Positions 5,396-49,118 of a stretch of DNA of 54,153 bases are shown piece after piece. The notes under the pieces were generated by a model, which had not been told where the DNA came from, made no database searches, and saw only the letters and a program-made list of their open reading frames with translations. Positions within the stretch are counted from its first letter, which is position 1; each line of letters starts with the position of its first letter. Source of the DNA: Candidatus Wolfebacteria bacterium. GTDB taxonomy: Bacteria; Patescibacteriota; Minisyncoccia; Phycocordibacterales; NVSU01. The position numbers and the translations under genes were made by a program. The stretch is taken from the NCBI GenBank assembly GCA_002401345.1, contig NVSU01000005.1, forward strand, positions 1 through 54,153, in the 5' to 3' direction.

Positions 5396-7915
5396 TTAGT
5401 CAATTTGGATGTCTTTTCCACCCGGATTTTGAGCATTAAATGCACTAAATGGGTCTAGAGATTCATCTTCCATAGATTCATCAATCATGTCATCGGATAC
5501 TTTTGTTTTCTTAAGATTAAGCTTGTAGTATCTATGACCAAGTACAGAGAGTCCACCGAGTACTACGAATAGAATAATCCATTCAACTACTGAGTTAGGG
5601 AATCCAAAGTCTCCAAAAATTGCTGCTGCTGAAAGAAGGCTACCGTCAGTATCATCGTGCTTCACGTTTTGTAATGCATATGATATTACGTCTTCTCCTG
5701 CTTCAGAATCTGGGTTAGTGAATACAAGAATTCCTGTTGTAATAAGAACCTCTTGTCTTCGTGCCTTTCCAAGCACTTCTCCTTGAATTTTAATTTCTCC
5801 TGTGTCTCCTGATTTAAATTCTCCAATTTCAAGTGTGATTGTATTATCAGATCGTGAGAATGATCCTTCACTTGTCTTTTCAAAACTTATTTCTTCAGGA
5901 AGGATGATTCGAAGTATTGCATCATCTATAGTCTTATTGCTTACGTTCTTGTATTCAATAGTATAGTTTACAGTGTCTCCTACCTCTACGTCATCAAATA
6001 TAGTTCTAAGTGAAAGTGACGCAAGAGATGAATTTCCAGGATCTTGAATTGTTACCACAGGATTTGTTCCTGCCTTAAGTGTTCTAAAGACCACTGTTGT
6101 ATCTCCTGTATCGCTTACGTTTGCATTTGATGCTGACGCTCGGAAGTAATATATTGTATTCGGTTGAAGACCTCTAATTGTGTGAACAAATGACTGAGAT
6201 CCTGTTGATCCAATTGAGTGATCGTGTGTTCGATTATCAACATCTATAGTTTGTCCATAGTTAAACCATGCTACTGTCTCTGCGTTTCCTCCTATAAGAA
6301 TTATTCCGCTTAACTTAGCACTTGTACTTGTGATTGAAGTTGCAACTGTTGTAAATGCTGCAAGTTCATCTGAAGTACCTGTAGTTATAAGACTTCGTAC
6401 GCTTCCACATGTCTGATCAATAGTGTTTTGAGCACATGCTCGGAAGAAATATTCAGTTCCACTTGAAAGACCTGTGAGTGTAAATGGTGATGCGATACTT
6501 ACTGATCCATTACCAAGGTTTTTGTTTCCTACTATAGTGTTCAAATTACTTGAACTTATTCCATACTCATACCACATGTTTGTAGGTGTTCCGTTTGGAA
6601 TAATAGATGAATTCAATATTGCTGAATTAGAAGTAATACTTGAAGCTGGGTTTGTAGCTACAACTGGTGCAAGATCTGAAACCACTGCACTTGTTGTAAA
6701 ACTCAGACTAGATCCACTCGTAGATCCTAAGTCATTTGCTGCAAGAATTCTAAATGTATATGAAGTATCTGAATCAAGGTTACTTACTGTATATCCTGAG
6801 AGAGTAATAAGAGATGTTCCATTTCCAATAGCTTCTGTAAATACAACATTTCCATTAAGTTCGTATGACACAGTTGTAGATGATCCATTAGCATTTACTT
6901 GACCATTCAATACTGCTGAATTTAAAGTAATATCTGAGGCGCTATTTGTAATAGCTGTTGGTATCTCAGCTGAGATTACCTCTGCTGGTAGTGTAGTAAA
7001 ACTAAATCTAGAGCTTGCTACCGTATCAACACTATTAGAAATATGCGCTTTGTAGTAGTAGGTTGTATTTGGAGTAAGTCCGGTAATTGTTTTTTCATAT
7101 TCCGCACTACCTAGAATTGCGTCTATAGAAGTAGATGCTCCTCCTGCAATAGAAGGTGATGTTCCATATTCAAACCAAATGCTTGATTTTACTCCCTTTG
7201 TATCAAATGAAGTAACAAGTGTTGCATCTGTTGCTCCAATATTAGTTGCTGACATTATATCAAGAGTTGGACTTTCAGTATTATTAACATCAGGTGATCC
7301 GCTTACTTCAAATCGCAATACCATTGATCCTTGCTTACAAGAAAGGTTTGAACCTGCACATGAATATTGTGACCTTATAGTTCCAATATTAATTCCACTT
7401 GTGAATATATCTGATTCACTTTGTCCTGCGGGCAATGCAGATGGACTTGTAGATTGGTTTGGATACCACTTTAGGGATCCGTCTACAAATGTAAGATTCT
7501 CAGCATTTGAAATATTTACTGATACTGAGTTCTCAGCTGGCGCTGCAGTCGTTGAATTATCAGCAGTAACTGATCCTGAGAATGAATGAGATGAAGCTTG
7601 CGCACTTGAAGGTGCATCAAGTTGAATAACAGTGTTGAGTGCATCCCAACTACCTGAGTTGTGATACCACACTCGTACATCAATCTCATCACCTGGATCT
7701 GCTGATAGTGATGTTGACCATCCACTGTTCTTAGTTACATTTAACACTTGAACTGTATCTGGATCTGAAGGATCAGAGTTAAATATAGTTACCACTTGCG
7801 CATGTGCCTGTGGTACTGCAAGTAATCCGAATCCAATAAGAATTGACCCTAAAATAATCGCCTTTTTTAGAGCTCGTATTGCATTATATGCAATTGTATT
7901 TGTAATATTTTTCAT
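5396..7915 (-). CDS. Large cell-surface protein with repeated FN3-like modules, a DUF11-like domain and a C-terminal TM anchor
   Basis: 839 aa. N-terminal signal/TM. At least four repeats ending in FN3-like strands (TPNTTYYYKAH, DTSYTFRILA, GTEYFFRACA, PNTIYYFRASA). VGDTVNYTIEYKN resembles the DUF11 repeat. Hydrophobic anchor WIILFVVLGGLSVLG lies near the C-terminus. Confidence 0.65.
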   Translation of the reverse strand: MKNITNTIAYNAIRALKKAIILGSILIGFGLLAVPQAHAQVVTIFNSDPSDPDTVQVLNVTKNSGWSTSLSADPGDEIDVRVWYHNSGSWDALNTVIQLDAPSSAQASSHSFSGSVTADNSTTAAPAENSVSVNISNAENLTFVDGSLKWYPNQSTSPSALPAGQSESDIFTSGINIGTIRSQYSCAGSNLSCKQGSMVLRFEVSGSPDVNNTESPTLDIMSATNIGATDATLVTSFDTKGVKSSIWFEYGTSPSIAGGASTSIDAILGSAEYEKTITGLTPNTTYYYKAHISNSVDTVASSRFSFTTLPAEVISAEIPTAITNSASDITLNSAVLNGQVNANGSSTTVSYELNGNVVFTEAIGNGTSLITLSGYTVSNLDSDTSYTFRILAANDLGSTSGSSLSFTTSAVVSDLAPVVATNPASSITSNSAILNSSIIPNGTPTNMWYEYGISSSNLNTIVGNKNLGNGSVSIASPFTLTGLSSGTEYFFRACAQNTIDQTCGSVRSLITTGTSDELAAFTTVATSITSTSAKLSGIILIGGNAETVAWFNYGQTIDVDNRTHDHSIGSTGSQSFVHTIRGLQPNTIYYFRASASNANVSDTGDTTVVFRTLKAGTNPVVTIQDPGNSSLASLSLRTIFDDVEVGDTVNYTIEYKNVSNKTIDDAILRIILPEEISFEKTSEGSFSRSDNTITLEIGEFKSGDTGEIKIQGEVLGKARRQEVLITTGILVFTNPDSEAGEDVISYALQNVKHDDTDGSLLSAAAIFGDFGFPNSVVEWIILFVVLGGLSVLGHRYYKLNLKKTKVSDDMIDESMEDESLDPFSAFNAQNPGGKDIQID

Positions 7916-14519: not shown

Positions 14520-14618
14520 CCCCGCCCCCTATGCTCGTTGAATTGATTTCATAGTAGGTAGGGTTTTATAATAACGAATATTATTTTATTGGTTTAATAA
14601 AAAGCTTAGAGGGCGGGG
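14520..14618. repeat. Gene-less relic of the GIY-YIG cassette
   Basis: Bounded by ccccgcccccta (14520-14531) and tagagggcgggg (14607-14618), the same inverted repeat that bounds the intact GIY-YIG gene at 16005-16253. Retains ccccgccccctATGCT followed by an early stop. Confidence 0.7.
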
Positions 14619-14671: not shown

Positions 14672-14819
14672 GCACAAATCTCTAAACAATCTCTTTTATT
14701 AATGAAAATAAAAGTAACATACGTTTGAAGGATAGATCCAGCGCTCTCACCAAGGTGAGAACCACATCGTCCTTTCGCACGCACATCTAGGCGGAACCTG
14801 ATAGTTTAGAGATTTGTAC
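14672..14819. repeat. 148-nt element closed by a 16-nt inverted repeat (MITE-like element or structured RNA)
   Basis: gcacaaatctctaaac (14672-14687) pairs with gtttagagatttgtac (14804-14819) with one mismatch. Internal hairpins cttttatt/aataaaag and ctcacc-aag-gtgag. No ORF. Confidence 0.45.
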
Positions 14820-16004: not shown

Positions 16005-16253
16005 CCCCGCCCCCTATGCTTTATGTTATACGTTTATATATTAAAATGGAAAAGTACTGGCGATTTATACATAGGATATACAAATGATCTCAAACGAAGA
16101 ATGAGGGAGCATAATAATGAAGCGTCTTGTACTATAATTTATTATGAAGCCTATCAAACTGAGGATTTAGCTCGAGATCGAGAGAGGAAGCTTAAACACT
16201 ATGGTAGCTCTTGGAGAGCTCTCGGAAAGCGAATAACTTCCTAGGGGGCGGGG
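16005..16253 (+). mobile_element. GIY-YIG mini-cassette bounded by a 12-nt GC inverted repeat
   Basis: ccccgcccccta (16005-16016) and tagggggcgggg (16242-16253). The right repeat contains the TAG stop of the enclosed gene. Confidence 0.7.
16023..16244 (+). CDS. GIY-YIG nuclease family protein (UPF0213/YhbQ-like)
   Basis: 73 aa. YVYIL..GDLYIGYTNDLKRRMREH matches the GIY-(X10)-YIG plus R..H core. Confidence 0.8.
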   Translation: MLYVYILKWKSTGDLYIGYTNDLKRRMREHNNEASCTIIYYEAYQTEDLARDRERKLKHYGSSWRALGKRITS

Positions 16254-16907: not shown

Positions 16908-17561
16908 CTATCTGCGTCTGGAAAAGACAAGAAAACTTTCTTGACCAAACCATGTACACTTATCATACACATGCATACCCCACCCGTCACCAAAATCTGC
17001 GATGTCATACATAGATTGACAAGTTGCAAACATTCTAATTCCATTTATATAAATTGGAAACATATTTAAATTACCATCTGTTAACAACTTCCCTATCTCC
17101 AAATTTGACTGTTTTGAAAAAAGATGAATCCAAGCCATACCAAGTTCTATATTTGAGAGTGGTTCAGGATGGATATGGCGTGAAATTTCATTATCATTTG
17201 TGGGTCCGATTACTTGGTAAATATTAAGCCAAAACCCAGGGTGTGATTTAATTTTCCTAAGGTCATTACCAATACATCTATAATAGGTATTTGTATGCCG
17301 AAGGTTGGCAACTGCCTTACTTTTGTTCATGCTCAAAAGATCTTTGAGGTCAACTTGCTTGATTGACGGAATATAAACACTGTCAACAAGCAGTGGGAAA
17401 CTAATTAACCCGCTATCAATTAATATTCCACTTGTATCATAAACTGAATAAGTTGATTTTTGAGTATTGTTTTGATATTCAATCTTCTCATTATCAGACG
17501 TTCCACAGGACGAAATAAAAAGAGGTAATAGTGTGTAGAGAAAAATATGCATATTTTTCAT
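16908..17561 (-). CDS. Lipoprotein, hypothetical
   Basis: 217 aa. Lipobox-like LFISSC. C-terminal ..FATCQSMYDI loosely resembles the SCQTIYDL / SCYNPIRDF ends of the 9534 and 8116 domains. Confidence 0.5.
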   Translation of the reverse strand: MKNMHIFLYTLLPLFISSCGTSDNEKIEYQNNTQKSTYSVYDTSGILIDSGLISFPLLVDSVYIPSIKQVDLKDLLSMNKSKAVANLRHTNTYYRCIGNDLRKIKSHPGFWLNIYQVIGPTNDNEISRHIHPEPLSNIELGMAWIHLFSKQSNLEIGKLLTDGNLNMFPIYINGIRMFATCQSMYDIADFGDGWGMHVYDKCTWFGQESFLVFSRRR

Positions 17562-17607
17562 AAGTATTTGATTTTAAAAGAATTGGACTTTATTTTTATC
17601 TATTTGT

Positions 17608-17635
17608 ATTATATCAAATAAATAAAAAATGTCAA
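17608..17635 (-). promoter_or_regulatory. Sigma70 promoter (TTGACA-N16-TATAAT)
   Basis: tgtcaa at 17630-17635, attata at 17608-17613 (minus-strand reading). Confidence 0.65.
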
Positions 17636-17673
17636 TGTTTCTTGTTTTTATATTTTAATGTTTTAATGTTTAT

Positions 17674-17793
17674 ATGAATCCCGTTAGAGATCACAATGTT
17701 ATGAAAGCGGAATATAGAATTTTAAAAGAAATAATTTACAATAATTACGATAGGTATGAGTTACACGGAAATGTAACCATTTCCTATCTCTAA
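17674..17793 (+). CDS. 39-codon small ORF (MNPV cassette peptide) immediately upstream of ruvC
   Basis: MNPVRDHNVMKAEYRILKEIIYNNYDRYELHGNVTISYL. A same-length homolog lies at 45904-46023. TAA stop, then CGGG, then the ruvC ATG. Confidence 0.4.
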   Translation: MNPVRDHNVMKAEYRILKEIIYNNYDRYELHGNVTISYL

Positions 17794-17799
17794 CGGGAT
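17678..17799 (+). repeat. Inverted repeats of the MNPV cassette (atcccgttagagat / atctctaacgggat)
   Basis: Perfect 14-nt inverted repeat at 17678-17691 and 17786-17799. The right arm overlaps the first two nt of the ruvC start codon. Internal perfect hairpin ggaaatg-taac-catttcc. Confidence 0.8.
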
Positions 17800-18322
17800 G
17801 AAAATATTATCTATAGATCCAGGATATGAGCGCGTTGGTATTGCTATTCTTGAAAAGAATATCAATACGCCAGTTGCTAGAGGCCAGAAGCCAGAGGCTT
17901 TGATATATTCCAGTTGTTTTAAAACGGATGCCGCACTTCTTCTTACTGAACGCATTTCACTCATTGGAAATGAGATTAATCGTGTAATAAAAAAATATTC
18001 ACCAGATGCACTCGCTATAGAAACTCTTTTCTTCACAGTTAATAAAAAAACTGCAATGGGTGTAGCTGAAGCACGTGGAGTAATTATGTATGAATGTTCA
18101 CAGGCTCATCTAAAAATATTTGAATATACTCCTCTTCAAATTAAGATCGCTGTTACAAGTTATGGAAAATCAACAAAAGATCAGGTGATAATGATGACAA
18201 AAAAATTGATCACTATGGATGAATCTATCACTTCAGATGATGAAATCGATGCCATTGCTATTGGATTAACCTGTTTTGCCCACGAAAAATCACTTACCTC
18301 AGCACCAAATTTTACAAAATAA
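17798..18322 (+). CDS. ruvC: Crossover junction endodeoxyribonuclease RuvC
   Basis: MKILSIDPGYERVGIAILE start and the ..DAIAIGL.. catalytic-Asp context. Confidence 0.85.
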   Translation: MKILSIDPGYERVGIAILEKNINTPVARGQKPEALIYSSCFKTDAALLLTERISLIGNEINRVIKKYSPDALAIETLFFTVNKKTAMGVAEARGVIMYECSQAHLKIFEYTPLQIKIAVTSYGKSTKDQVIMMTKKLITMDESITSDDEIDAIAIGLTCFAHEKSLTSAPNFTK

Positions 18323-44584: not shown

Positions 44585-44935
44585 CTATCGCATCGATACA
44601 CCAAAGAGTGTAATTGAAAATGTTGGGACAGGTACTGGAGGAGTAGTAGTTGTAAAACATGACCCAGGAGTTAATATAGGATTATAGAGACCCAATATCC
44701 ATTGCCCAGGTGAAACAACTTTTTTAGTTGCAGTAATTATGTAGGGGGCAGGGGGAAATAAGGCTACAGGGACAATGGCGATGACTCCATGTTGAGCAGC
44801 ACACTTTACTCCAGGTATTTTGGTCGAAATGATTTTCCCTCCGAATGGTCTAAGGAGACTTTGGGCAAATGTAGTTTGTGCGACAAAAAATATTGTGAGC
44901 GCAATAAAAAAAATCGTAAATTTGGATGTGTTCAT
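44585..44935 (-). CDS. Small secreted protein (first gene of the T4SS-like locus)
   Basis: 116 aa. Signal ..AQTTFA-Q. Two Cys and a Pro-rich C-terminus. Confidence 0.5.
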   Translation of the reverse strand: MNTSKFTIFFIALTIFFVAQTTFAQSLLRPFGGKIISTKIPGVKCAAQHGVIAIVPVALFPPAPYIITATKKVVSPGQWILGLYNPILTPGSCFTTTTPPVPVPTFSITLFGVSMR

Positions 44936-45020: not shown

Positions 45021-45899
45021 CTAAGAATTGATTCCTTTTGTGAGACATTTCCAGTCGTTCAAAGTAAGATTTTCAGCCCGAGAATTATCTGGTAATGCAC
45101 ATGCACTCAGAATTTCTTTTTTATCTGTCTGAATGGATGACTTTTCGGTCTCATTAAAAAGAGGTTTAATGTTGCTCATGAGTAATTTTCGTTTATGTGA
45201 GAATCCAGCCTTCAGAACTTTAAAAAAATCTGTTTCGTTTATGGTATCAAAAAAATCTCGTGATATTTTGCGTACAGAAAGTATAGCTGAGTCTACTTTT
45301 GGGGCAGGAGAGAATAGTCGAGCAGGTACTTTTTCTACATACGTTGGCATTCCATATGCCTTTACACTTATTGAGAGAATGCTTTCCCTAAATCGCCTTT
45401 CGGGCGATCGGGCGACTGCGCCCGCTGGGCGCGGTTTAGCCTTTTTTCTTCGTTTTTCTATCCCAACAATTCGACGGGCAACTTCTTTTTGAACAAGTAT
45501 GGTAATAATTTCTGGTTGATGTTCTGTTTCGAGGAATTTTTTTAATATTGCCCCTGTAATGTAATACGGTATATTGGCCACTATTTTATAGGGGTTTTTA
45601 TCCAAATCAGCACTTTTAGGTTCAAAATCGAGAATATCTCCCTCGAGTAGGGTAAGTGTCCCTTTGTCTATCTCTTTTTTGAACTTTTCTTTTAAATATT
45701 CGACTAGTCTAGTGTCTTTTTCAATTGCGATAATTTTTTTTGCATGTGTCAGAAGTTTTTCTGTGAGGATTCCCTTCCCGGGACCGATTTCTAACACAAT
45801 ATCGTTCTCATTTATATTAGATGCATTCAACATAGACATCACAACTTTCTGTGATTTTAGGAAATTTTGTCCAAAAGTTTTGTTTGGTCTGAGGTTCAT
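45021..45899 (-). CDS. rsmA: 16S rRNA (adenine1518/1519-N6)-dimethyltransferase RsmA/KsgA with an internal insertion
   Basis: FGQNFL, VLEIGPGKGILTEKL, VANIPYYITG, VQKEVARRI, PKVDSAIL. An extra basic segment KRRKKAKPRPAGAVARSPERRFRES follows VQKEVARRIVG. Confidence 0.9.
   Translation of the reverse strand: MNLRPNKTFGQNFLKSQKVVMSMLNASNINENDIVLEIGPGKGILTEKLLTHAKKIIAIEKDTRLVEYLKEKFKKEIDKGTLTLLEGDILDFEPKSADLDKNPYKIVANIPYYITGAILKKFLETEHQPEIITILVQKEVARRIVGIEKRRKKAKPRPAGAVARSPERRFRESILSISVKAYGMPTYVEKVPARLFSPAPKVDSAILSVRKISRDFFDTINETDFFKVLKAGFSHKRKLLMSNIKPLFNETEKSSIQTDKKEILSACALPDNSRAENLTLNDWKCLTKGINS
45392..45441. repeat. GC-rich multi-hairpin insertion inside rsmA
   Basis: atcgcc-tttcg-ggcgat and cgggcg-actg-cgcccg (alternative gcgccc-gct-gggcgc). 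36 of 50 nt are G/C by my count, in an AT-rich gene. Confidence 0.7.
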
Positions 45900-46023
45900 C
45901 CCGTTAGAGATAGGAAATGATTACATTTCCGTGTAACTCATTCCTATGATCATTATTGTTAATTATTTTGTCTACTACTCTTCCTCCCATATACATAACA
46001 TTGCGATCTCTAACGGGATTCAT
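45898..46023 (-). repeat. Second copy of the MNPV cassette, abutting the rsmA start codon
   Basis: atcccgttagagat (45898-45911) / atctctaacgggat (46006-46019). On the minus strand ...TAA CGGG ATG(rsmA). Internal hairpin ggaaatg-taat-catttcc. Confidence 0.8.
45904..46023 (-). CDS. 39-codon small ORF (MNPV cassette peptide) immediately upstream of rsmA
   Basis: MNPVRDRNVMYMGGRVVDKIINNNDHRNELHGNVIISYL. Same length and same termini as the ruvC-linked copy. The longer 64-aa track ORF is probably an artefactual extension. Confidence 0.4.
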   Translation of the reverse strand: MNPVRDRNVMYMGGRVVDKIINNNDHRNELHGNVIISYL

Positions 46024-47544: not shown

Positions 47545-47576
47545 TAAAAAAATCCCTCTCACGAGGGATTTTTTTA
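47545..47576. terminator. Bidirectional terminator between convergent genes
   Basis: aatccctc-tcac-gagggatt flanked by A- and T-runs. Confidence 0.7.
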
Positions 47577-47579
47577 TAT

Positions 47580-49118
47580 CTAACGGGGTCGGTATTGGAG
47601 TGCTTCTAGGATATGAGTGTCATGTATAGACTCACTTGTATCAAGGTCCGCGATGGTTTGGGCGAGTTTTAATACGCGATGGTATCCTCGTGGTGAGAGA
47701 TTAAGTTTTTTCGCACTCTCGTTCAGTAGTGTTTTAACATCGTCACTGAGAGATATGGTTGATTGAAGATCTTTCACGTTCATTTCACTATTTTTTTGAA
47801 TGTTTCGTTCAAGTTTTTCAAATCGTTTCCTTTGAATGTCTCGCGCATCCTCAACTCTCTTTTTTATGACCTTTGTTTCATCTCCACTTTTACTCTTTGA
47901 GCTCAATGTATCAAAATCTATATTTTCTACTTGTACCCACATATCAATTCTATCCATAATCGGTCCTGAAACTTTTCTTTGATATCGCGCGAGGTCTGAC
48001 GGAGTACAAATACATTCCTTTGCATTTGTTCTGTAGTTACCACACGGACAGGGATTCATCGCTGCAATTAAAATAAAGTTTGAAGGAAAGTGAGCTGTTC
48101 CCTTTGCACGAGAGATCACTACAATATTATCTTCAAGTGGTTGTCGCAGAGATTCTATTGCCCGACGTTCAAACTCAGGGAACTCATCTAAGAAAAGCAC
48201 ACCTCTGTGTGCCAGGGTCACTTCTCCGGGTTTTGGATATGTTCCACCACCTATTAACGACACATATGAAGAGGTATGGTGAGGAGATCTGAAAGGTGGA
48301 TCTGTAACGAGTCCATCTTTAATTGCCCCTGCAATAGAGTGAATTCCAGTAATCTCTAGAATATCATCGTGTGAGAGTTTGGGAAGAATTGAAGAAAACA
48401 CACGTGCAAGCATTGTTTTTCCTGTCCCTGGTGGTCCTGACATTGCAATATTATGTCCTCCGGCCGCAGCAATCTCGAGTCCGCGTTTAACTGACGCTTG
48501 TCCTTTGATATCAGAAAAGTCGATGGTGTATTTTTGATCTTTGTACTTAATTTTAGTTTTGGGGAGTGCTTCAAGTGAAAAATCTTCTCCTTCATTTTCA
48601 ATAAGGTGGTCAATAATTTCTTTTAAGGTAGAGACTCCGTATATTGTTATTCCATCAACGAGTGCAGCCTCTTGAGCATTTTCTTTGGGAAGATAGAGTT
48701 CTTTAAACCCATTACGTTTTGCTTCTTGAGCTATTGGAAGTGCACCACGAATAGGTCGCAGTTCCCCATTGAGTGAGAGTTCACCAATGAACAATTTCTC
48801 TTCTGGATTAAATGAAATATATTTTTCTGAGAGCAAATATCCGAGTGCGATGGATAAATCAAAATATGAACCCTCCTTTTTAATCTCAGCTGGCGAAAGA
48901 GACACAATAATTTTTTGATATTGTTGTTTTGGCGGTTTATGGCCAGTATTTTTAATTGCTGATGACACACGGTCACGTGCTTCTTCAACTGCTTTATCAG
49001 GAAGACCAACTATAGAGAATGCATGAAGTGTATTTTTAGATACATCTACTTCAACGTCAATGATTTGACCCTTTAATGCGTTTGTTTGAGCTGAATATAC
49101 CCTTGAGAAGTTACTCAT
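47580..49118 (-). CDS. comM: YifB/ComM-family Mg-chelatase-like AAA+ ATPase
   Basis: Lon-like N-domain, Walker A MSGPPGTGKTM, VLFLDEFPEF, C-terminal ..ILEALQYR. Confidence 0.9.
   Translation of the reverse strand: MSNFSRVYSAQTNALKGQIIDVEVDVSKNTLHAFSIVGLPDKAVEEARDRVSSAIKNTGHKPPKQQYQKIIVSLSPAEIKKEGSYFDLSIALGYLLSEKYISFNPEEKLFIGELSLNGELRPIRGALPIAQEAKRNGFKELYLPKENAQEAALVDGITIYGVSTLKEIIDHLIENEGEDFSLEALPKTKIKYKDQKYTIDFSDIKGQASVKRGLEIAAAGGHNIAMSGPPGTGKTMLARVFSSILPKLSHDDILEITGIHSIAGAIKDGLVTDPPFRSPHHTSSYVSLIGGGTYPKPGEVTLAHRGVLFLDEFPEFERRAIESLRQPLEDNIVVISRAKGTAHFPSNFILIAAMNPCPCGNYRTNAKECICTPSDLARYQRKVSGPIMDRIDMWVQVENIDFDTLSSKSKSGDETKVIKKRVEDARDIQRKRFEKLERNIQKNSEMNVKDLQSTISLSDDVKTLLNESAKKLNLSPRGYHRVLKLAQTIADLDTSESIHDTHILEALQYRPR

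Follow-up and report, generated by a model that had tools for sequence, protein, structure and literature searches.

Bacterial MITEs, such as Correia of Neisseria, RUP, ERIC/IRU and Nezha, are about 100-150 bp long, carry terminal inverted repeats (TIRs) and a short target duplication, and occur in many copies per genome with a variable centre; a longer parent has the same ends, and the copies are co-transcribed with neighbouring genes. TIRs together with a short target duplication are the signature of a DDE transposase. IS1380, for example, has ends CC and a 4-5-bp duplication. The window analyzed here, a 54,153-nt stretch of a Candidatus Wolfebacteria contig, holds two copies of a short element, at ruvC and rsmA, that shares the features of these MITEs. 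However, its longer partner encodes only an 86-residue GIY-YIG nuclease and no transposase of a known insertion sequence (IS), about 91% of the elements of its Patescibacteria subtype lie exactly on a start codon, which they rebuild, in one orientation, and the ends are conserved across phyla.

GIY-YIG homing endonuclease genes, whether borne on introns or free-standing (I-TevI, T4 seg), are also selfish nuclease genes that lie between host genes or at their edges and are expressed from host signals, and the cassette nuclease was weakly similar to a group I intron endonuclease model (E about 1e-4 to 1e-5, under the model cut-off). In contrast to these genes, the cassette encodes a catalytic domain only, has TIRs and a target duplication, targets hundreds of unrelated genes and not one cognate allele, and has short non-coding derivatives. 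Rickettsia palindromic elements (RPEs) are likewise small palindromic mobile elements that are tolerated where the host product survives, but they lie inside coding sequence and become part of the translated protein, whereas the window subtype sits on a start codon, out of frame; we know of no nuclease encoded by an RPE. Stop-start coupling in operons (ATGA, TAAnATG) is resembled by the full cassette, which ends in GGA TGA over the host ATG, and by the TAA-CGGG-ATG junction of the window copies, but here the overlap is made by the last base of the element plus the target duplication, and the coupling is a prediction. In rRNA genes of CPR bacteria, small GIY-YIG ORFs were found in insertions that do not belong to the group I or group II introns, and many short insertions with no ORF occur as well (PMC11270868). 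The host group and the pairing of small GIY-YIG ORFs with short ORF-less forms are the same as here, but inverted repeats, a target duplication and an association with start codons were not reported for those insertions (PMC11270868). A limited literature search returned neither repeat sequence in a relevant context and no prokaryotic TIR-flanked GIY-YIG cassette, which agrees with the initial annotation of this DNA, whose author knew of no described family of this kind.

Two copies of a short element at ruvC and rsmA

Copy 1 lies on the forward strand at ruvC (17798-18322, PF02075), the start codon of which was rebuilt by the element; the N-terminus, MKILSIDPG, is that of a normal RuvC. On the left, a duplicated host start ATG (17674-17676) overlaps the left TGAA of a 4-bp target-site duplication (17675-17678), which was recognized from the sequence and from covariation in the family. 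The left TIR, TCCCGTTAGAGAT (17679-17691), contains a 12-mer shared family-wide. The right TIR, ATCTCTAACGGGA (17786-17798), has the A of the ruvC ATG as its final base, and the right TGAA of the duplication (17799-17802) consists of the TG of that ATG plus AA. The 39-codon ORF (MNPVRDHNVMKAEYRILKEIIYNNYDRYELHGNVTISYL, 17674-17793) runs from the duplicated ATG to a TAA in the right repeat (17791-17793), which is followed by CGGG and then by the ruvC ATG at 17798. In frame with this ORF is a relic nuclease start codon (17701-17703), which aligns with the GIY-YIG start of the full cassettes described below, and a subterminal hairpin, GGAAATG-TAAC-CATTTCC (17767-17784), lies 1 nt to the inner side of the right repeat.

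Copy 2 lies on the reverse strand (45899-46018, tip to tip), and a DNA model of the cassette matched both of its ends. Its host gene is rsmA/ksgA (45021-45899), in which the A of the ATG (45899) is the final base of the element; the N-terminus, MNLRPNKTFGQNFL, is one that we take to be typical of 16S rRNA dimethyltransferases. The left repeat (46018-46006) and the right repeat (45911-45899) are flanked by TGAA on the left (46022-46019) and on the right (45898-45895, the TG of the rsmA ATG plus AA). The 39-codon ORF (46023-45904) extends from the duplicated host ATG (46023-46021) to a TAA (45906-45904); the relic ATG is at 45996-45994 and the hairpin at 45930-45913.

Both copies are 120 nt long from tip to tip and have perfect 13-nt TIRs, or 14 nt when the flanking base is counted (17678-17691 and 17786-17799 in copy 1). 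They are identical at 99 of 120 nt across the small ORF, and the mismatches cluster in the centre. Because a TGAA direct repeat flanks each copy, the upstream ATG is the duplicate of the host start codon. The ORF, the TAA-CGGG-ATG junction, the 14-nt inverted repeats and the hairpin were all found as the initial annotation had described them, as was the second copy with equal ORF length and frame and a diverged centre. The same annotation had pointed out that no Shine-Dalgarno sequence precedes ruvC. This was correct, yet only 2 of the 35 long ORFs in the window are preceded by a Shine-Dalgarno-like 4-mer, so the absence is not special to ruvC. A third TIR-like match, at 47576-47590, is isolated, fits 12 of 13 positions and lies 3' of a terminator; it was treated as chance or relic. 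A tRNA scan of the whole window gave no hit.

The pairing of the terminal repeats and the formation of the hairpin, as first proposed from the letters, were reproduced in the predicted RNA fold, with z scores against shuffles of -3.5 for copy 1 and -2.6 for copy 2. In 91 of 118 copies from the family, a gap of 1 nt separates the hairpin from the repeat. The hairpin occurs in 115 distinct sequences, and its mean dG was -10.05, compared with -4.09 for shuffles; in the full cassettes it is weak. Rfam 15 gave no match for the whole window at the gathering threshold, nor for 17600-17900 at E <= 10. No terminator-like site was found in the element, which argues against the attenuator that had been suggested.

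The element family and its GIY-YIG cassette

The terminal 12-nt ends of the window copies recur at more than 230 loci from public genomes and metagenomes, so the window elements are not a product of chance. At least 116 similar short elements with ends CCCGTTAGAGAT...ATCTCTAACGGG were found elsewhere, in Patescibacteria, Omnitrophota, Planctomycetota, Elusimicrobia, Ratteibacteria, Ignavibacteria and one Clostridia-labelled MAG, and several single genomes carry multiple copies at different genes. Solitary 11-mers of the repeat occurred at chance level in the fetched loci. The IMG/VR phage collection gave 0 matches for both size classes and thus no sign of phage carriage.

A direct repeat of 4 bp, TGAA in most cases, borders short and long forms alike. 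In the copies with outermost bases T..A, the subtype of the window, the best direct-repeat register is the 4 bp just outside the tips, and the flanking 4-mers are identical in 42 of 66 short and 34 of 54 long copies. Left and right 4-mers covary (TGAA/TGAA, TGGA/TGGA, TGAG/TGAG, TGCG/TGCG, TGTA/TGTA, TCCA/TCCA). A pair of filled and empty alleles was sought by three routes, and none was found: the closest RuvC relatives were at most 69% identical, junction-spanning BLAST among the loci matched only flanks common to loci of the C..G subtype, and the 94%-identical Ham1 neighbour of one cassette is followed by a different downstream gene. Insertion and duplication are therefore deduced from covariation and not seen directly. 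Some of the shared C..G flanks represent one locus in related contigs.

In the T..A subtype the target is an ATGAA start. The original ATG, with the host upstream signals, remains on the left, and the host ATG is re-created from the last A of the element and the TG of the right direct repeat. Scored by a long ORF starting at the tip, 61 of the 66 short copies (57 in one orientation and 4 in the other, P = 5e-13) and 49 of the 54 long copies abut a start codon. The window contains 857 TGAA sites, of which 18 are start codons and 116 lie outside long ORFs; from these counts, chance combined with avoidance of coding DNA would predict about 13% of insertions at start codons. A mobile mini-cassette that targets start codons, one of the roles considered at the outset, is thus well matched by the counts at starts, the covarying repeats and the genomes with multiple copies. 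A plain MITE had been expected to show interrupted ORFs at arbitrary distances from genes. Most ORFs are in fact interrupted, yet the elements are not placed at arbitrary distances from genes, and the element is for that reason not a plain MITE. In the C..G subtype the direct repeat is often missing (left TTTA, right TGAA) and the elements frequently lie within host ORFs or at their ends; the rule of docking on start codons is therefore specific to the T..A subtype. Elements of the other subtype, not that of the window, were found inserted in frame into prepilin leader peptides (locus L098) and between a Shine-Dalgarno sequence and its ATG (L112 and L131). One element lies within a tRNA-Glu-like anticodon loop and has an irregular right junction; its host gene may be dead. 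The nuclease is replaced by a tRNA-Ala in one copy, which means that the cargo can vary.

The same repeats bound a full cassette of about 277 bp (range, 272-289), at least 120 of which were found in metagenomes. Its 13-nt ends, [T/C]CCCGTTAGAGAT ... ATCTCTAACGGG[A/G], surround a single ORF for an 86-residue GIY-YIG nuclease (Pfam PF01541, E = 1.5e-16) that consists of a stand-alone catalytic domain; NUMOD and other DNA-binding domains are absent from the 86-residue proteins, and the closest solved relatives are UPF0213 proteins. The ORF is intact in 100 of 111 distinct long elements, and the median pN/pS over 431 pairs was 0.33, which indicates purifying selection. In most full cassettes no stop codon belongs to the ORF itself: the right repeat supplies the final residues, RFLSLTG, and termination occurs on the TGA of the target duplication, so that the end of the ORF overlaps the host start (ATGA). 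The stop comes from the flank in 68 elements (TGA in 51, TAA in 16 and TAG in 1) and in another 12 it is a TAA within the right repeat. Of 39 elements, 24 have the nuclease ATG in the frame of the host ATG, where one third would be expected, and in 13 of the 39 the frame of the host ATG meets a stop that lies between 9 nt before the nuclease ATG and overlap with it. Nuclease proteins in the databases have 86 or 95 residues, and the longer form matches 86 residues plus a 9-residue extension, MNPVRDxxx, from the host ATG. The initial annotation had listed a mobile cassette among the possible roles of the window unit but missed the parent nuclease cassette, which shares its ends. Within the 54-kb window, cassettes with CCCGTTAGAGAT ends are absent; the sole nuclease gene there has different repeats and belongs to a second cassette/MITE pair, composed of a GIY-YIG gene and a short derivative.

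The cassette DNA model matched the short copies only at positions 2 to about 25 and about 262 to 289, and intermediates retain the model up to about position 110 or carry a truncated ORF beginning MFYTYVIQS. From the left end of the cassette the window copies retain about 30 nt, which include the GTT-ATG of the nuclease start with its ATG still in frame, and from the right end about 28 nt; unrelated or decayed sequence and the MITE-specific hairpin fill the interval. The GIY-YIG domain was absent from the window unit itself in the Pfam search. The unit is short, has TIRs and a target-site duplication, is present in multiple copies and has a longer coding element with the same ends. Judged from these alignments, the window copies are internally deleted, MITE-type derivatives of the cassette, and their 39-codon ORF is the carcass of the nuclease frame.

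Small ORFs and translation of the host gene

The conservation of K.II.NN..R.ELHGNV between the two window copies had been read as a sign of selection on the peptide. The pN/pS between the small ORFs of copy 1 and copy 2 was 1.59, and random substitutions at the sites of difference kept the frame open 39% of the time, so this conservation is no evidence of peptide selection, and the open frame in the two window copies alone is not significant. In addition, the ORF is interrupted by stops in 42 of 52 start-codon copies, with lengths that vary from 4 to 33 codons, peptide conservation is confined to the part encoded by the inverted repeats, the centre of the element is variable, and the two 39-residue peptides had no match in Pfam. 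Selection on the peptide was thus not upheld.

A frame ending on a TAA 4 nt before the host ATG was present in 26 of 52 copies (P = 0.009). Ten of these 26 frames were open, compared with 2.1 +/- 1.4 in shuffles, and none of 2000 shuffles reached 10; in the controls, shifted frames were open in 4 of 104 cases and the other two frames in 0 of 26. Shine-Dalgarno-like motifs were found in 0 of 44 left flanks and before 2 of the 35 window genes. The surplus of ORFs open up to the TAA 4 nt before the ATG suggests termination-reinitiation coupling. However, in 24 of the 52 start-codon copies no ORF of 10 codons or more extends to the host start, so the coupling cannot be general. The translational coupling proposed in the initial annotation is partly supported by the enriched open frames, although about half of the copies speak against it as a general rule. 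A leaderless mRNA for ruvC or rsmA was considered and rejected after a promoter scan gave no -10-like site at either gene, and a -10-like TATCTC within the right repeat was dropped as too weak. At some target genes elsewhere, -10-like boxes are located 6-9 nt before the ATG.

Competing explanations and implications

The window unit is probably a non-autonomous, internally deleted copy of the 277-bp GIY-YIG cassette that docks on start codons; its mobility by the nuclease and the coupling are the parts of this reading that we infer. The cassette would borrow the transcription and the translation start of the host for expression of the nuclease, and would hand translation back to the host gene by stop-start coupling. 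At ruvC and rsmA, in a genome essentially without Shine-Dalgarno sites able to start these genes otherwise, ribosomes would initiate at the duplicated ATG, read the 39-codon relic frame, melt the terminal stem and the hairpin on their way, terminate at the TAA, 4 nt short of the host ATG, and then reinitiate. The nuclease, supplied in trans, would be the agent of mobility. We also put forward, tentatively, that the 86-residue GIY-YIG nuclease could itself mobilize the cassette, which would then be a new class of prokaryotic DNA transposon, one that borrows the start and stop signals of its target and spreads across phyla with hairpin MITEs. Such a transposon, with no promoter or stop of its own and often no ribosome-binding site, might dock on a host start codon and rebuild it, and its other subtypes might dock on stop codons, prepilin leader codons or the spacer between Shine-Dalgarno sequence and ATG. 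To our knowledge, about 277 bp would make it about the smallest autonomous element known. GIY-YIG enzymes, however, are not known to catalyze strand transfer, which speaks against mobility driven by the nuclease.

The short elements could instead be conventional MITEs that depend on a DDE-type transposase from another locus, perhaps one related to IS1380/piggyBac, with the GIY-YIG gene as a passenger or an addiction or homing module. TIRs with a 4-bp duplication are the classic DDE footprint, the cargo is exchangeable in the copy with tRNA-Ala, and the window has no matching cassette. The 13-nt repeat CCCGTTAGAGATA, which starts with CCC, and the T-N-A-A duplication resemble piggyBac (CCCTAGAAAGATA, TTAA), with 9 of 13 positions of the repeat matching, a likeness that may be coincidence. 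Nevertheless, we regard this explanation as unlikely. The nuclease is intact and under purifying selection in nearly all long elements, its ORF is integrated with the element to the extent that the C-terminus comes from the repeat and the stop from the duplication, and a second family with different repeats likewise consists of a GIY-YIG gene plus a short derivative. The 1.55 Mb of fetched loci, which were preselected by element size, yielded no DDE transposase, and repeat pairs there were only about 50-200 and about 275 bp apart, none above 300 bp and none at the size of an IS; this absence is weak evidence because the loci had been chosen by those sizes. Analogies to attC/integrons, IS200/IS605, IS110 and BHB introns were dropped, as the direct repeats covary and the defining features of those systems are missing.

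Two further explanations place the element at the RNA or peptide level. It could be removed or bypassed in the RNA, by processing of the 13-14-bp terminal stem and ligation, ribosome shunting over the closed stem or hopping between the two identical ATGAA sites, which would make the small ORF irrelevant. The predicted terminal stem does bring both ATGAA copies together, about half of the copies sit on presumably expressed genes although no ORF of 10 codons or more extends to the host start, and the elements between Shine-Dalgarno sequence and ATG and in the tRNA-Glu-like loop, as well as the GIY-YIG-bearing non-intron insertions in CPR rRNA genes (PMC11270868), speak for this view. It is nonetheless quite doubtful: a search of Rfam, even at E <= 10, gave no ribozyme or intron signature, the view does not predict the surplus of open frames that end at the TAA, and the tRNA-Glu example has its irregular junction in a possibly dead gene. 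That the unit is instead a host cis-regulatory leader (hairpin-gated coupling, an attenuator or an RNA thermometer) or a functional 39-residue peptide, selected at ruvC and rsmA, is highly improbable. Both copies keep the frame, a stable fold and the stop 4 nt before the gene, and open frames are enriched across the family, but more than 100 unrelated genes from many phyla have the same unit in front of them, with target duplications, its centre is not conserved, and the interrupted ORFs, the high pN/pS and the lack of Pfam and Rfam matches and of a terminator-like site all argue against it.

If the reading as a start-codon-docking derivative of a nuclease cassette is true, the family would represent a mobile element built around translation signals that survives in compact, Shine-Dalgarno-poor genomes. 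Landing on a start codon would lend host initiation to a tiny nuclease, and the start would be returned through ATGA or TAA-n4-ATG. It would explain thousands of annotations as "GIY-YIG nuclease family protein", "putative endonuclease" or "excinuclease ABC subunit C" in Patescibacteria and Omnitrophota, together with odd N-terminal extensions and GIY-YIG fusions in gene calls, and it may account for the uncharacterized short insertions in CPR rRNA genes (PMC11270868). Recognition of the element corrects the start-codon calls of the genes behind it. The nuclease would possibly be of a class not earlier linked to transposition with TIRs and target-site duplications, and the element would provide a compact, testable system for termination-reinitiation in bacteria whose initiation is not led by Shine-Dalgarno sequences.

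Two elements on the ruvC and rsmA start codons

Sequence reading of positions 17400-18100, together with the ORF listing, placed a 39-codon small ORF on the plus strand, from an ATG at 17674 to a TAA at 17791-17793, which is followed by CGGG and then by the ruvC ATG at 17798. The inverted repeat arms (17678-17691 and 17786-17799, plus strand) are perfect reverse complements, and the hairpin GGAAATG-TAAC-CATTTCC (17767-17784, plus strand) lies one base inside the right arm. All these features, which the initial annotation had described at ruvC, were confirmed from the sequence. The second copy it had reported, with the same length and frame and a diverged centre, was also found: on the minus strand a small ORF at 46023-45904 precedes rsmA/ksgA, the ATG of which is at 45899. 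The two small ORFs are equal in length and frame and differ at 21 of 120 nt; the divergence is central, with one base different in the first 30 nt and one in the last 38 nt. In the predicted RNA folds of both copies the terminal arms are paired and the hairpin is present (z = -3.5 for copy 1 and -2.6 for copy 2). A direct repeat, TGAA, that was absent from the initial annotation stands on both sides of each copy, so that the host start codon is present twice, the upstream ATG being its duplicate.

One genome per species was scanned with the pattern CCCGTTAGAGAT-N80-110-ATCTCTAACGGG, which matched at least 116 loci. The hosts were many Patescibacteria (Saccharibacteria, Paceibacteria, Nomurabacteria and others), as well as Omnitrophota, Planctomycetota, Elusimicrobia, Ratteibacteria and Ignavibacteria, so that the window unit belongs to a very large family. 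Among the matches listed, the short elements were 104-134 nt long with centres unrelated to one another, and 91 of 118 carried a 6-9-bp hairpin exactly one base inside one repeat. These hairpins comprised 115 different sequences with a mean dG of -10.05 kcal/mol, compared with -4.09 in shuffles, which indicates that the structure is retained while its sequence varies. The short matches listed fell into two subtypes by tip base, T..A (66 copies, all in Patescibacteria or unclassified MAGs) and C..G (49 copies). Direct repeats fitted best as the 4-mers that adjoin the tips on the outside; the two 4-mers were identical in 42/66 T..A and 22/49 C..G copies among the matches listed. The two flanking 4-mers covary (TGAA/TGAA 25, TGGA/TGGA 6, and also TGTA, TGAG, TGCG, TCCA and CTGA pairs) and are thus real target duplications outside the element. 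Tandem or near-tandem short elements with a flank in common (TTCAC in between) were seen in two fetched loci (L092 3370-3616 and L017 1136-1446).

In 57 of the 66 T..A short copies, a long-ORF ATG was formed on the hairpin side by the last A of the element and the TG of the direct repeat, and 4 more lay at start codons in reverse orientation (57:4, p = 5e-13). Of the 857 TGAA sites in the window, 18 form start codons and 116 are located outside long ORFs; a preference for TGAA combined with the elimination of coding-region insertions would thus place only some 13% of copies on start codons. Attachment to the start codon, claimed for the ruvC copy, is thus a family property, seen across the T..A subtype. 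Among the long-form matches listed, 49/54 T..A elements were likewise on a start codon. Eighteen of the 35 window genes begin ATGAA.

Nuclease cassettes with the same ends

A 278-bp element with the same repeats, found in a Ratteibacteria locus (L098), encodes an 86-residue GIY-YIG domain (PF01541, E = 1.5e-16), and a 134-nt element (L019) carries a truncated version of such an ORF. Metagenomes were scanned for the same repeats with a gap of 240-270 nt, which gave at least 120 loci. Among the matches listed, the long elements were 272-289 bp, and 100 of 111 distinct ones had an intact GIY-YIG ORF, always directed towards the repeat that bears the hairpin in the short form. The median pN/pS of the nuclease was 0.33 (431 pairs). 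Its closest solved relatives are UPF0213 proteins, and its match to a group I intron endonuclease model was weak. The protein search returned at least 2402 clusters, which bear no annotation beyond 'GIY-YIG nuclease family protein', 'putative endonuclease' or 'excinuclease ABC subunit C'.

In the short elements the cassette DNA profile found matches only for its positions 2 to ~25 and ~262 to 289, and a few intermediates retained cassette sequence up to position ~110. In the window copies the match covers 2-30/32 and 262-289. They still contain the nuclease start as GTT-ATG (17701-17703 in copy 1), in the same frame as the duplicated host ATG, so that the 39-codon ORF is what remains of the old nuclease frame. 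The hairpin belongs to the short form alone; in cassettes the corresponding region folds at -4.7 against -2.9 in shuffles.

The right repeat encodes RFLSLTG, the final nuclease residues. The flank provides the stop in 68/100 cassettes (TGA 51, TAA 16, TAG 1), at a junction ...GGA-TGA-A that overlaps the rebuilt host ATG, and 12/100 use the TAA inside the repeat (...GASYL*), in the frame of the window ORF (...ISYL*). The nuclease ATG shared the frame of the duplicated host ATG in 24/39 cassettes, 17 of them uninterrupted fusions, which accounts for the two lengths, 86 and 95 residues, of the database proteins; in a further 13/39 a stop in the host-ATG frame lay between 9 nt before the nuclease ATG and overlap with it. 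In many database proteins of 190-514 residues (P0138, P0144, P0187 and others) residues 1-79 form the mini GIY-YIG domain; these entries may result from read-through or from gene calls that fuse a cassette with the downstream host gene. One 95-residue cassette protein (P0334; L238-L240 1501-1988) is indexed in 204 blocks of the collection. In 24/24 contigs read its cassette was at one and the same position, flanked by a Ham1-family gene and by a 67-residue gene with its start in an ATGA overlap, which suggests an insertion fixed in a widespread lineage.

The C..G copies occupied other settings. One (L112) lies between a Shine-Dalgarno sequence and the ATG, with GAGGAG-TTTA before and TTTA-TGG after the element; some are on GTG starts, and many have no direct repeat (TTTA left, TGAA right). 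At ORF 3' ends, the host ORF stops on the left-repeat TAG in 10/48 cassettes and runs on in 21/48. In prepilin-type genes others follow the G-F-T codons without breaking the frame and make the leader peptide longer. In L098 (1500-3470, JAQURI010000013) three consecutive prepilin-type genes each carry such an element with a TTCA duplication, one being a 126-nt short copy in a confirmed T2SS GspG gene and another a complete GIY-YIG cassette forming an in-frame fusion with the pilin. Cleavage by prepilin peptidase at the duplicated G-F-T site could remove the insert, which lengthens the leader upstream. In L113 (about 5890-6040, minus strand) the anticodon loop of a tRNA-Glu(UUC)-like gene contains an element, after TTCA at position 37/38; this element carries a complete tRNA-Ala(CGC) in place of the nuclease, with the CCA abutting the right repeat and 6 extra nt at the right junction.

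Reading frame of the small ORF

The initial annotation had proposed selection on the peptide, or an attenuator. The data spoke against this reading, which was rejected: pN/pS between the small ORFs of copies 1 and 2 was 1.59, the ORF from the duplicated ATG stopped early, after 4-33 codons, in 42/52 start-codon copies, and a Pfam search with the small-ORF peptides matched no family. Only repeat-encoded residues (M-x-PVRD ... SYL) were conserved among the 52 copies, and if substitutions were drawn at random for the same sites, the frame of the window copies would stay open in 39% of cases. These comparisons point to no selection on the peptide. The frame itself does carry a signal in start-codon copies. 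The length class that puts the right-repeat TAA in frame held 26/52 copies (p = 0.009), and 10 of these 26 were open throughout, compared with 2.1 +/- 1.4 in shuffles (10 reached in 0/2000), 4/104 in shifted frames and 0/26 in the other two length classes. However, 24/52 copies had no ORF of at least 10 codons reaching the host start, which counts against a general requirement.

We infer that the cassette would take host transcription and initiation for nuclease production and would return ribosomes to the host gene at the ATGA junction. At ruvC and rsmA, ribosomes would initiate on the duplicated ATG, open the stem and hairpin over 39 codons, halt at the TAA and restart 4 nt further. Such stopping and restarting fits a genome poor in Shine-Dalgarno-like motifs (2/35 window genes) and the T..A subtype, in which 0/44 left flanks had one.

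A second family in the window and classification

A second GIY-YIG mini-cassette with perfect 12-nt inverted repeats (CCCCGCCCCCTA/TAGGGGGCGGGG) occupies the ruvB-yebC spacer (16005-16253, plus strand). Its 73-residue GIY-YIG ORF (16023-16244, plus strand) has the ATG in the left repeat and a TAG stop in the right repeat, and the cassette is homologous at the DNA level to the CCCGTTAGAGAT cassettes (E = 6.5e-11). A 99-nt short derivative (14520-14618, plus strand) has the same repeats with one mismatch and retains the cassette start CCCCCTATGCT, and an isolated match to the repeat at 11/12 positions (44742-44753) is a possible relic. The pattern of nuclease cassette and short derivative thus occurs twice, independent of repeat sequence.

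Upstream of ruvB, a 14-bp stem (ACAAATCTCTAAAC / GTTTAGAGATTTGT) closes a strongly folded region of 146 nt (14674-14819, plus strand; z = -4.0) that had no Rfam match; its arms resemble the TIR motif with the order swapped. A near-match to the right repeat, TATATCTAACGGGGT (47576-47590, minus strand), directly after a terminator-like hairpin downstream of a LysM/M23 peptidase gene, is either a relic or chance. A 44-nt motif that recurs between genes (17608-17635, minus strand; also 10074, 11763 and 12674) includes a minus-strand promoter of perfect TTGACA-16-TGnTATAAT form, and at 17608-17635 this promoter drives the gene at 16908-17561. Consensus sigma-70 promoters appear to be in use in this genome, which has almost no Shine-Dalgarno sites.

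The repeat and the T-N-A-A duplication of the cassette recall piggyBac/IS1380. No DDE enzyme for these repeats was found, nor an IS-sized element with them in the fetched loci, and a search for an empty, element-free allele of the insertions found none. The full-length relative belongs to no known IS family, and it differs from a classical homing endonuclease gene in lacking a DNA-binding domain, in targeting unrelated genes and in having TIRs and a target duplication. GIY-YIG ORFs have been reported in non-intron insertions of CPR rRNA genes (PMC11270868), and a 2006 survey of the GIY-YIG superfamily left open whether other members are molecular parasites; a partial literature search found no description of TIR-flanked GIY-YIG cassettes. 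The unit first noticed at ruvC is real, and a mobile cassette at start codons was the right reading. The window unit shows every MITE feature that can be tested on sequence, and it is a MITE of a nuclease-cassette family that is apparently, and for now provisionally, undescribed.
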